A stretch of 60,056 nucleotides of DNA from an uncultured Desulfobulbia bacterium. Lineage in GTDB: Bacteria; Desulfobacterota; Desulfobulbia; Desulfobulbales; CG2-30-60-27. The notes beneath the pieces are model-generated. The model saw only the letters and a list, made by a program, of their open reading frames with translations, did no database searches and had not been told where the DNA came from. Where the stretch lies: contig CAYUCH010000003.1 in assembly GCA_964443295.1 (NCBI GenBank), forward strand, positions 1-60,056. Direction: 5' to 3'. How positions within the stretch are numbered: position 1 is the stretch's first letter; every line of letters begins with the position of its first letter. The translations under genes and the position numbers were made by a program. Of the stretch, positions 48,985 through 53,013 are shown one piece after another.

Positions 48985-49911
48985 TTACACTAGCTCACTA
49001 AGATATTCTTCAACAGCCTGCTCGGCTACAGCACCTTCACCGGCAGCATTGACCACTTGCCTTACTTCCTTTGAACGAATGTCACCGGCCGCCATGACGC
49101 CGGGAATATTTGTTCGCATTTCTTCATCAGTTTTTACAAAACCGTTTTCCATGTTTAATTGATCCGCCGGTAATATTTCCGTGTTTGGGATAGTGCCGAT
49201 CAGGACAAATACACCACCCACGGCAAGCGTACTTTCATTGCCGTTATTATTGCGAATGAGAATGTTTTCCACCCCATTTTCACCACGAACCTCAGTCACA
49301 TGAGAATCCCACAGGAAATCAATCTTCTCATTGGCAAAGGCATGCTCTTGCACTATTTTCGTGGCGCGAAGTTCGTCGCGACGGTGGATTACCGTTACTT
49401 TTTCTGCAAAGCGAGTCAGGTACACGGCTTCCTGGATTGCGGTATTTCCACCCCCAACAACTACAACATGCTCACCTCTAAAAAAAGGCCCATCACATGT
49501 CGCACAATAGGAAACTCCCTTGCCGGTCATTTCCGACTCCCCTGGGATACCGAGCCTGTTGGGGCGCGCCCCTGTGCAGAGGATAAGGGCTTGGCAGGTT
49601 ATAGTCTCACCACTTTCCAAATTGAGACGTTTTACCGGTTGAGAAAGATCCATAGAAACGACATTGGCCAGTTTATGCTGTAAACCAAAACGGGCAGCCT
49701 GAGCCGACATTTTTTCCATGAGATCAAATCCGGAAATACCATCTGGAAAACCTGGATAATTATCAATCCAGTCAGTGACCAGCACTTGGCCACCAAGTGC
49801 TCCTTTCTCAAGCAGTATGGCCTGCAATTGAGAACGGGAAGCATATAGCCCTGCCGTCAAACCTGCAGGGCCGCCGCCTAAAATTACAAGCTGATAATCG
49901 ATAGATGACAT
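48985..49911 (-). CDS. trxB: Thioredoxin reductase
   Basis: GGGPAG, GVSYCATCDG, HRRD. Confidence 0.97.
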   Translation of the reverse strand: MSSIDYQLVILGGGPAGLTAGLYASRSQLQAILLEKGALGGQVLVTDWIDNYPGFPDGISGFDLMEKMSAQAARFGLQHKLANVVSMDLSQPVKRLNLESGETITCQALILCTGARPNRLGIPGESEMTGKGVSYCATCDGPFFRGEHVVVVGGGNTAIQEAVYLTRFAEKVTVIHRRDELRATKIVQEHAFANEKIDFLWDSHVTEVRGENGVENILIRNNNGNESTLAVGGVFVLIGTIPNTEILPADQLNMENGFVKTDEEMRTNIPGVMAAGDIRSKEVRQVVNAAGEGAVAEQAVEEYLSELV

Positions 49912-49948
49912 AACAGAATATGTTCACACATATTGCGAACCGGTACGA

Positions 49949-50278
49949 CTATAGTGCCTTATTAAGCATCTCAACAATTTGAGTTTTTCCAACAGCACCG
50001 GTAACCTGATCCGCCACATCGCCACCTTTAAATAAGATCAGGGTAGGAATGGCTCGAATGCCATACTTACCTGGAGTGGCAGGATTATCATCGACATTCA
50101 TTTTTGCAATAACAGCTTTTCCGTCAAATTCACCGGCCAACTCTTCAATAACCGGGCCAATTGCTTTACAAGGTCCGCACCATGGTGCCCAAAAATCCAC
50201 CAGAACGGGAACAGCTGCTTTTAATACCTGGGCCTCAAAATCACCATCGCCAACATGAATCACATTATCTCCAGCCAT
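49949..50278 (-). CDS. trxA: Thioredoxin
   Basis: FWAPWCGPCK, IPTL. Confidence 0.98.
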   Translation of the reverse strand: MAGDNVIHVGDGDFEAQVLKAAVPVLVDFWAPWCGPCKAIGPVIEELAGEFDGKAVIAKMNVDDNPATPGKYGIRAIPTLILFKGGDVADQVTGAVGKTQIVEMLNKAL

Positions 50279-50637: not shown

Positions 50638-51033
50638 ATGAATCAAAAGGAAAGAGCTGAACTCCTCCAAGTTATTGCAGATTTTATTGAAATGGGACAT
50701 GTTGAAAACATAGTTTCCATGTACAAACAAGATCCCACATTATATGAACTCACCGGCGACCTCTTACGTGATGAGCGATATATGGTTCGCATGGGCATGG
50801 CCATATTATTTGAAGAGCTTGTACAAGAACGACCAGAAGATGTGGCCTTGGCCATTCCATCACTCAAAGCTTTAGTGGGTGACTCTCCTACCTGGGTGAA
50901 AGGGGAAGCGGTTACACTCCTAGGTATCATCGGGACACCGGAAGCCCTGCTTCCCATAAAAGATCTTATTCATGATCCGGATCCACAAATTGCTGAAATC
51001 GCCCTTGATATAATGAATGAGAATGAAAGATAA
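50638..51033 (+). CDS. HEAT-repeat protein
   Basis: LLRDERYMVR, WVKGEAVTLLGIIG, DPDPQI repeats. Confidence 0.8.
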   Translation: MNQKERAELLQVIADFIEMGHVENIVSMYKQDPTLYELTGDLLRDERYMVRMGMAILFEELVQERPEDVALAIPSLKALVGDSPTWVKGEAVTLLGIIGTPEALLPIKDLIHDPDPQIAEIALDIMNENER

Positions 51034-51814
51034 CTCTAAAAAATCCACTTTTTATTTCTGGGCCGGCCATTTTATCATATTTGGAAAAATTACCGGCAAT
51101 ACGGAACACCGCCATCATGCCGTTCAGGTCATCTTTAACCGCGAAGGGCTTTTCGAGCTTCAATCGGAAGGTTCAACTCTTCTTTGTGGTGGTGTCATAA
51201 TTGGCTCTGATCACCCCCATCAATTACTCAGCTCCAATGACTCCCAAGTTCACATGCTCATCGACAACGAAACAACAGTGGCCGGAATTCTCAAGGACAA
51301 ATACCTTCAGGGAGAAACAGTCAATGTAATGGATGCGGAGCTTTTACAAAAACTACGGGATTGTATCGGTTTCTCTGGAAATGTGCCCGGCACTTGCCAG
51401 GATGCAGACCAGGTATATAGAAAGCTGACTTCGGAGCTGGGTGCTTCTCCCGGTGAAAAAAAAGGGGATTTTGACCCACGAATCCAAGACACTATTAATC
51501 ACATTAATAAATCAATCTCCAAGCGAATTACCATTCCCGACCTGGCCCGCCGGGCCTGCCTTTCTGAAAGTCGCTTGACCCACTTGTTTACCGAGCAGAT
51601 CGGTATTCCCATCAGTAGATATATCCTCTGGGCCCGCCTCATGACTGCAGTGCAGCATGTTCTTGCCGGTGAATCAATAACCGATGCCGCATATAGTGCC
51701 GGTTTCTCCGATTCCGCCCACCTGAGCCGCACCTACCGCCAAATGTATGGCATCACCTTGGCCAGCGTATTTAAAAATAGCAGGTTTATTCAAGTTATCT
51801 CCTGCCTGGATTGA
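51023..51814 (+). CDS. AraC-family transcriptional regulator
   Basis: HRHHAVQ cupin-like N-terminus, LSESRLTHLF..GIP..RY, AGFSDSAHLSR double HTH. Confidence 0.95.
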   Translation: MKDNSKKSTFYFWAGHFIIFGKITGNTEHRHHAVQVIFNREGLFELQSEGSTLLCGGVIIGSDHPHQLLSSNDSQVHMLIDNETTVAGILKDKYLQGETVNVMDAELLQKLRDCIGFSGNVPGTCQDADQVYRKLTSELGASPGEKKGDFDPRIQDTINHINKSISKRITIPDLARRACLSESRLTHLFTEQIGIPISRYILWARLMTAVQHVLAGESITDAAYSAGFSDSAHLSRTYRQMYGITLASVFKNSRFIQVISCLD

Positions 51815-51906: not shown

Positions 51907-52305
51907 ATGAGAGGGTCATATCTGGTTGCTATTTGGGTAGTATTATTTTGTTGTTCAGTTGTAAAATGTGTCTCTGCAGAGCCAGTTTTGAAGAGGTTTG
52001 ACGAAGGCACCCAAACCTGCCGAGAGATTACCTATAAAAACGTCATGACCGGCTATAAAATTTTCCGCACATCGTGTAAAACTTGTCATTATCAAGGCAA
52101 TCAGGATGGAACGCGGTTTCTGTATTCAGAATCAAAAACTCCAAAAGCCTGGAACAGGGTTTTTACAGATTTATATCCTGAGTGCGTCAGTGCGGGAGCC
52201 TGGGATAGTTTAGCGCCTACAGACAGGCTTGCTCTGAACGATTATCTTTTAGTCGATGCTTTTGGAAATTTCGATCCCAATCAAGTGGGAAGTTGCTTCA
52301 GCTGA
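51907..52305 (+). CDS. Secreted mono-heme cytochrome c, paralog 1 (may extend by a Sec codon)
   Basis: Signal peptide, single CKTCH, AAGGAGG RBS; stop region TGA-TAG. Confidence 0.88.
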   Translation: MRGSYLVAIWVVLFCCSVVKCVSAEPVLKRFDEGTQTCREITYKNVMTGYKIFRTSCKTCHYQGNQDGTRFLYSESKTPKAWNRVFTDLYPECVSAGAWDSLAPTDRLALNDYLLVDAFGNFDPNQVGSCFS

Positions 52306-52315
52306 TAGTCCCATC

Positions 52316-52334
52316 GCGCCCCGGTACGGGGCGC
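52316..52334 (+). other. Conserved hairpin GCGCCCC-GGTAC-GGGGCGC (candidate SECIS or terminator), copy 1
   Basis: Perfect 7-bp stem; loop begins 17 nt after the TGA. Confidence 0.5.
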
Positions 52335-52437
52335 TTTTCACCTCATTCCCCCACGATCTACTCTTTCCTGTCTGGCTGTAAATACAACTCAAAGATTGCC
52401 TATTAACATCCAGATATGCATATATGTAACTTTTTAA

Positions 52438-52504
52438 CACCACTTTGGCCTGCCCATTCAAAAACAGCGGATTCATTCAAGTCATCTCCTGCCTGGACTG
52501 ATAT
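52438..52504 (+). pseudogene. Remnant of a second araC 3' end (last ~20 codons)
   Basis: 55/67 nt identical to 51751-51817; translates TTLACPFKNSGFIQVISCLD* versus ITLASVFKNSRFIQVISCLD*. Confidence 0.85.
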
Positions 52505-52582
52505 TTTTCTAAGTAATGAAAGAGTTACTCCGTGGTTTTCTCTCTCAAGGCTCATTCTCAACAGAAATTTAGGAGGTGTTGA

Positions 52583-52981
52583 ATGAAAAAATTGTGTCTG
52601 GGATTTTTTACACTTTCTCTGATAGGTCTCTTTGTGTCTTTAGGGATAGCAGGCCCACAAAGTCGGTTTGATCAGACCACAAAAACATGCAGAAAATTTC
52701 ATGTTTATGATGCTCTGATGAACGAGGCATCAAACCTCTTCAAGGACAATTGCAAATCATGTCATTATCGCGGCAATGAAAAAGAAGCCCCATTTCTCCA
52801 TTCCGAGTCCAAAACGCCAGAGGCCTGGGACCGGGCATTTTTTGAGCGCTACCCCAAATGCGCCCAGGACGGTACCTGGGATAAACTTGAGCTACGGGAC
52901 CTTATGGTGATCAATGATTATCTTTTCCGTTTCGGGGCTGGGACATACGATCCCAATGATGCTGACGATGCTTACTGCTGA
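52583..52981 (+). CDS. Secreted mono-heme cytochrome c, paralog 2 (may extend by a Sec codon)
   Basis: Signal peptide, single CKSCH; shares RFD..T.TCR, FL.SESKTP.AW, NDYL, DPN with paralog 1; stop region TGA-TAA. Confidence 0.88.
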   Translation: MKKLCLGFFTLSLIGLFVSLGIAGPQSRFDQTTKTCRKFHVYDALMNEASNLFKDNCKSCHYRGNEKEAPFLHSESKTPEAWDRAFFERYPKCAQDGTWDKLELRDLMVINDYLFRFGAGTYDPNDADDAYC

Positions 52982-52993
52982 TAAGAGTTCATT

Positions 52994-53013
52994 GCGCCCC
53001 GGTACGGGGCGCT
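52994..53013 (+). other. Conserved hairpin GCGCCCC(C)-GGTAC-GGGGCGC (candidate SECIS), copy 2
   Basis: Same stem and loop as copy 1; followed by TCCCCC, with no U-tract. Confidence 0.5.

Follow-up and report, generated by a model that had tools for sequence, protein, structure and literature searches.

Small monoheme cytochromes c with a predicted C-terminal selenocysteine form a likely undescribed protein family in Desulfobulbia

We analysed two small cytochrome genes in a window of 60,056 nt (the whole of the stretch studied here, contig CAYUCH010000003.1 of an uncultured Desulfobulbia bacterium). The genes and their surroundings are collected in Table 1. Each copy encodes a monoheme cytochrome c with a single CxxCH motif, the two proteins being 43% identical over 104 aa, and the N-terminal sequences, judged by eye, suggest that the proteins are exported. 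An earlier note on this DNA had described two 132-aa paralogs with a TGA seven residues past a DPN motif and a second stop adjoining it, TAG in copy 1 and TAA in copy 2; we found the same arrangement, and translation through the TGA gives the tails that the note had named. Neither protein scored over the cut-off for any family in NCBIfam or Pfam, where generic cytochrome models were the only matches, all below cut-off.

Table 1. Genes, codons and hairpins around the two cytochrome copies (window positions).
Feature	Position	Strand	Remarks
Thioredoxin and thioredoxin-reductase-like genes	48985-50278	-	1.6 kb upstream
AraC-family regulator	51017..51814	+	directly upstream of copy 1
Copy 1, monoheme cytochrome c gene	51907..52308	+	133 aa predicted, tail C-F-S-U; CxxCH 57-61, Cys93; N-terminal signal peptide judged by eye
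Copy 1, ORF1	51907-52302		132 codons
Copy 1, TGA (predicted Sec)	52303-52305		
Copy 1, true stop	52306-52308		TAG
SECIS-type hairpin, copy 1	52316..52334	+	3' of true stop; loop G 17 nt past UGA
araC 3'-end remnant	52440..52501	+	precedes copy 2
Copy 2, monoheme cytochrome c gene	52583..52984	+	133 aa predicted, tail Y-C-U; Cys36, CxxCH 57-61, Cys93
Copy 2, ORF2	52583-52978		132 codons
Copy 2, TGA (predicted Sec)	52979-52981		
Copy 2, true stop	52982-52984		TAA
SECIS-type hairpin, copy 2	52994..53012	+	loop G 19 nt past UGA; no U tract

The AraC-family gene is a candidate local regulator of the region. The last 30 nt of the araC remnant match positions 51785-51814 at 27 of 30 places, with all three mismatches synonymous; alternatively, the remnant could be a conserved regulatory site that overlaps the end of araC. 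A recent duplication of the two copies is not supported: a quick tree, built from 132 of 182 distinct rows after thinning of the common CG-tail rows, assigns them to separate subfamilies. The remnant, together with the identical hairpins described below, would be explained by an old duplication of an araC-cytochrome unit or by a later conversion between the flanks. The thioredoxin and thioredoxin-reductase-like neighbourhood is not kept at other family loci.

Behind each TGA stands the 19-nt hairpin GCGCCCC-GGTAC-GGGGCGC, which the earlier note had called near-identical in the two copies and which is in fact identical. Of the loop-G distances that it gave, 17 and 20 nt, the first stands and the second is corrected to 19 nt between TGA and G (the G being the 18th and 20th base, respectively). 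Its remark that copy 2 lacks a U tract is borne out, as no T follows that stem; four T follow the stem of copy 1. The local folds have energies of -17.5 and -17.3 kcal/mol (z -2.8 and -2.1) for hairpins 1 and 2, respectively, and both hairpins agree with all four constraints of the bacterial SECIS model as set out in the Fig. 2 legend of PMC13188914. In the 4.24-Mb genome the 19-mer has these two sites only, even at two mismatches, the terminator scan called neither hairpin, and Rfam gave two chance matches only, far below the gathering score. The copy number, the terminator scan and the rarity of U tracts across the family (2 of 125 members) rule out a terminator or REP element, which the note had named as an outcome that would refute its reading. 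For comparison, an immediate second stop is found in 46 of the 687 long ORFs of this genome that end in TGA (out of 2450 long ORFs), and a loose GG-loop hairpin in 36 of 673. A genome-wide scan for TGA plus hairpin gave too much noise for a list of the selenoproteome, and one paralog, with an AGTT loop, escaped it. Separately, a radical-SAM-like gene (G000:C8 34230, +) and a rhodanese-like gene (G000:C100 10981, -; script coordinates in both cases) have an in-frame TGA and a SECIS-like hairpin, and are probably known selenoprotein types.

The host genome (99.8% complete) encodes selA, selB and selD, all over cut-off, and a tRNA-Sec, so that the machinery the earlier note had proposed to look for (selA/selB/selC/selD) is present. 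The note had also suggested a comparison with the SECIS elements of fdh and selD. The native elements of selD (7-bp stem, GGT loop, 20 nt past the in-frame TGA), fdhA (6-bp stem, GGTCT loop, 18 nt) and mvhD (6-bp stem, AGGTA loop, 22 nt) proved to be of the same hairpin type, with a GGT loop 18-23 nt past the UGA.

We compared stop codons and downstream sequences across the family. Loci were taken from GTDB contigs (7), metagenomes (the best 80 of 98) and genome searches, one of which, class-wide, contributed the 30 best of more than 400 matches; 128 long-form members were kept after dropping duplicates and loci cut at the 3' end. TGA stands at the end of 125 of the 128, and homologs thus do not use TAA or TAG freely at this codon. 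The next in-frame stop in these 125 members is TAA (68), TGA (45) or TAG (12), and adjoins the first TGA in 97, being separated from it by one codon in 24 and by two or three in 4. As the first stop is fixed and the next one varies, it is the second codon that acts as an ordinary stop. Each of the 125 distinct sequences downstream contains a stem of 5-13 bp whose loop, 16-20 nt past the UGA, includes a G. Stem pairs 4-7 were Watson-Crick at a frequency of 0.85, against 0.42 (maximum 0.49) in 500 partner shuffles, and there were 54 distinct arms. The significance of this contrast is overstated, because the stem finder fits each stem separately, so that the inner pairs are bound to match, and because the loci are related. 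Under a stricter, first hairpin rule, 86 of 91 members had the element, compared with 4-6% of background ORFs. RNAalifold on 42 downstream sequences gave compensatory changes in all three pairs of its consensus, which is limited to three pairs because 4-nt and 5-nt loops were aligned ungapped. In those members that have TGA-TGA, among the 45 with TGA as the second stop, the second codon is nearer to the hairpin than the SECIS model allows, which makes them a natural test of the spacing rule.

Taken together, the sequence evidence makes it almost certain that the UGA of both window genes is decoded as a terminal selenocysteine. The seleno-cytochrome reading that the earlier note had offered as speculation is supported by the conserved UGA, the SECIS-type hairpins and the Sec machinery, and its function is here proposed from sequence. 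What the note had called a small secreted seleno-cytochrome family is a large family in Desulfobulbia: in this genome alone, eight long-form genes, seven of the Sec type and one of the Cys type, are spread over six loci. At E 1e-5 family members were found in 174 of 401 class genomes, mostly as strong matches, some of the genomes having short relatives only. Occurrence differs widely between genera (20 of 20 genomes in g258, 0 of 40 in g2 and 0 of 38 in g275), and in a phylum-wide sample of 401 genomes strong matches were confined to the same order; named records point to Desulfobulbaceae and Desulfurivibrionaceae. A selA match is present in 359 of the 401 class genomes, which leaves little contrast for co-occurrence with the family, and selB was found in all five family-positive genomes that gave no selA match.

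Among the three long-form members without TGA, two are Cys-type and one lacks both Cys and Sec. The two Cys-type genes (L055:1468-1908 and L188) have Cys at +20 from the Tyr of the last helix, which is the register of U in the window copies; they end in TAG/TAA and have no hairpin, and the protein P0066 has the same tail. The search for Cys at the TGA position, which the earlier note had also suggested, was thus successful, in a small subfamily only. At G000:C69 8205-9075 (L055:1038-1908) of this genome, a TetR gene is followed by a natural Cys/Sec pair in one unit: first a Cys-type paralog whose N-terminus resembles that of a lipoprotein, then, directly after it, a Sec-type paralog. Other long-form proteins (L184; P0050, P0057, P0060, P0062 and P0063) have tails rich in Gly and aromatic residues and no Cys; the five P entries are known as protein only, and a TGA may follow.

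A further 39 relatives are shorter and more distant. They use TAA (24), TAG (9) and TGA (6) as stops, end in C-x-stop in 29 cases, and are separated from the long forms in the quick tree (132 of 182 rows; SH-aLRT 100). These short relatives head operons. Of 16 downstream genes picked for scanning, five were best matched by thiosulfate reductase PhsA (below cut-off, the genes being cut by locus ends), three were octaheme tetrathionate-reductase-like (two over cut-off), five were DUF3373, and one each was rhodanese, TAXI and unassigned. In one run of this genome (G000:C17 25368-30113, L226), a short monoheme cytochrome with a Cys tail is followed by a DUF3373 protein and a protein with a rhodanese domain; cytochrome and DUF3373 are paired in many genomes, and seem to make up a sulfur-handling module that is as yet undescribed. 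Three short relatives (L028, L031 and L034) have a degenerate heme motif, with Y for the first Cys and, in one, no His either; they keep the terminal Cys, and two of them precede octaheme tetrathionate-reductase genes. Three others (L186, L189 and L190) are two-domain versions with two CxxCH motifs, ending in K-T-C-E.

Residues C57, C60, H61 and C93 are invariant in the 89 Sec-type rows. Outside CxxCH, C93 (89/89) thus stands alone among Cys, His and Met residues in being invariant, and conservation extends to no further His or Met. C36 is kept in 82 rows, and 10 rows have no Cys within the four residues before U. The redox arm with a CxxU or CU pair that the earlier note had drawn is therefore upheld as to the Sec tail, but not as to the pair: an obligatory Cys partner is ruled out by those 10 rows, and what is conserved is Sec and Cys93. 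An obligatory C36-C93 disulfide is likewise ruled out, as C36 is absent from 7 of the 89. The tail before U ranges in length from +16 to +21, a spread of five residues. An AlphaFold2 model, with U read as C, has a pLDDT of 88.9, falling to 67 in the last ten residues.

The best fold match of the model is the N-terminal heme domain of the DHC diheme cytochrome c (PF09626; PDB 2fwt and 3u99), with a middling Z of 6.2 to 2fwt (rmsd 2.6, 64 aligned residues); Foldseek at E 0.001 found no match for the model. The PsbV2 structure 4lji is a weak fold neighbour (Z 4.7), with a heme that we take to be His/Cys-ligated and, unlike the window family, no Sec. A profile comparison by hhalign against 14 DHC domains gave a probability of 94.5 and E 8e-8. 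The DHC domain and the window proteins have the layout CxxCH...W...YL..NAA in common, whereas the latter lack the second heme domain and have an extra N-terminal hairpin and the Sec tail; PF09626 itself does not match the window proteins, which have a single CxxCH. The invariant His-Phe motif of DHC is replaced by K-C in the window family, the His, which is presumably the distal (axial) heme ligand in DHC, aligning with K92, one residue off C93. From its invariance and these alignments, C93 is the likeliest sixth (distal) heme ligand.

SaoC and KCU-star/DUF466 presumably carry Sec at or near the C-terminus, as the name Cys-Cys-COOH suggests. These families (NF040734 and NF033934; Table 1 of PMC13188914) have a CU motif, as do some window-family tails, but the window family carries its Sec on a heme domain and can do without the neighbouring Cys; neither model matched any member of the family alignment. 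Among the 119 families of that Table 1, three heme selenoproteins are listed, ExtKL, the GSU2204 family CXXCH protein (NF041027) and Sec forms of the octaheme TIGR04315, none of the three being a small monoheme protein; the window family was not found in that inventory. The GSU2204 family, TIGR04315 and P450 family M (PMC11703216) have heme and Sec in one chain, as here; their folds and sizes differ, and as far as these sources describe them, none is a stand-alone monoheme cytochrome with a terminal Sec. SoxA and TsdA, cited in PMC13510729 for thiolate-ligated c-hemes in sulfur chemistry, are like the family in the proposed C93 ligation, but have no Sec, oxidise thiosulfate and are not among the listed fold matches.

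A close parallel is MccSep/ExtKL (GSU2937-2936, NF040886), described in the relevant parts of PMC13510729 as a pentaheme polysulfide reductase with a His/Cys heme and Sec 3.6 A away. There, five hemes are carried in about 49 kDa, with an internal Sec on an Ig-like domain; the window proteins, in contrast, have one heme, about 12 kDa when mature, a terminal Sec and the SECIS behind the stop. The likeness would lie in a His/Cys heme next to Sec; in the window family its Cys would be the invariant C93, which aligns one residue from the DHC His. The NF040886 model matched none of 105 family rows (one CxxCH per protein against five), and the host genome has no MccSep over cut-off. An obligate partnership with MccSep is not supported, because the distributions do not track each other: of 40 g2 genomes, 26 have MccSep and none has the family, while all 13 of 13 f114 genomes have the family and none of them MccSep.

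We propose that the family acts as a miniature MccSep-like reductase, an exported His/Cys heme protein whose terminal Sec attacks S-S bonds; reading from sequence, we put the mechanism as a whole at about 0.45. SelB would bind the 3'-UTR hairpin and insert Sec133. Heme c would be attached at C57 and C60, with H61 as the proximal and the invariant C93 as the distal ligand, and the flexible tail would bring the selenolate to C93. The selenolate would then attack polysulfide or a persulfide, perhaps selenite too, and the resulting Se-S adduct would be resolved by electrons arriving via the heme, in most members with the help of a second Cys, from the tail or C36. The logic of MccSep would thus be packed into one 12-kDa domain. 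Since one heme supplies one electron, the two-electron cleavage of an S-S bond needs a partner or a dimer. What speaks against the reductase is that the sulfur context belongs to the separate clade of the short relatives, not to the Sec-type genes.

It is possible, if on balance unlikely, that the Sec-type proteins are inducible periplasmic detoxifiers of peroxide, reactive chlorine, electrophiles or metalloids rather than parts of sulfur respiration. We found no conserved operon around the Sec-type genes. An upstream ORF is present at 106 of 125 loci, the largest groups being TraB-like (18), a second, putatively housekeeping group (13), TetR (12) and DJ-1/AraC (10). Stand-alone genes, often next to a one-component regulator, would suit detoxification, as would the identity of the next upstream gene at four of the six host-genome loci (AraC, DJ-1/AraC, ECF sigma or TetR), the up to seven Sec paralogs per genome and, at a few loci, neighbouring thioredoxins of the TlpA-like or DUF255 kind. 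The regulator neighbours, however, are partly synteny among kin, no peroxidase or thiol-redox operon is conserved, and the nearest relatives with operons point to sulfur metabolism.

It is also rather unlikely, though conceivable, that Sec itself is the distal heme ligand (His/Sec), C93 being held in a disulfide with C36 or the tail Cys. The protein would then serve as a low-potential electron carrier, or be a heme gated by redox state. Sec matches C93 in conservation and is retained where the neighbouring Cys is lost (10/89), the short relatives retain the terminal Cys whether the residue near the C93 position is His or Cys, and a P450 family provides a natural Sec-ligated heme (PMC11703216, in its account of that family). 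No row lacks both C36 and the tail Cys (0/89), as expected if C93 needs a disulfide partner, but with about 0.8 such rows expected this is not significant. In addition, C93 sits where the DHC fold has its conserved His, and the variable length and lowest model confidence of the tail suit a mobile arm better than a fixed ligand. If, against these odds, the terminal Sec does bind or gate the heme iron, the family would provide the first natural c-type cytochrome with a selenolate ligand and the smallest selenoenzyme to contain heme, with up to seven paralogs per genome across Desulfobulbia masked by stop annotation.

A third reading, which we find improbable, makes the tail an arm that carries sulfur or selenium and shuttles a persulfide or perselenide to PhsA/Psr, octaheme reductases or a porin; the heme would do no more than sense or reset the arm. 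SoxY is an example of a carrier arm, and a flexible terminal chalcogen resembles such arms. The Cys-tailed relatives do precede rhodanese, DUF3373 and PhsA-like genes; the Sec-type genes, however, are unlinked to such partners. Finally, it is hardly credible that translation simply ends at the TGA and that the hairpin serves as a terminator, a REP or a stability element: the hairpin does lie 3' of the annotated ORF, four T do follow it in copy 1, and listed database entries do end before the TGA, but TGA is fixed while the next stop is free, spacing and loop are conserved, U tracts are rare, the terminator scan is silent, the genome has two copies of the element, the hairpin is absent exactly in the Cys-type genes, and the short relatives use all three stops.

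Coming back to the seleno-cytochromes with a proposed reductase function, no published description of the family was found in full-text literature searches, NCBIfam 20.0 has no specific model for any of the 105 family rows, and the main texts of deep-Sep (PMC12013277) and BSepDB (PMC13326102) contain neither 'cytochrome' nor 'heme'. We thus regard the proteins as likely to be an undescribed family of miniature selenium-and-heme redox enzymes in sulfur-cycling bacteria. Public entries stop at the residue before Sec in 23 of the 23 cluster members listed. As only one residue is lost, current pipelines miss the selenoprotein family, and expression of the protein as annotated would yield a truncated form for study.

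The proteins would be a minimal heme-plus-Sec module, small enough for spectroscopy, and would make it testable how Sec and a thiolate-ligated heme work together on S-S bonds, for which the example to date is MccSep, a much larger protein. The pathways of sulfur reduction and disproportionation in Desulfobulbia are described as unresolved in the part of PMC13490349 that deals with them, and the family is a candidate periplasmic catalyst in the sulfur metabolism of these bacteria.
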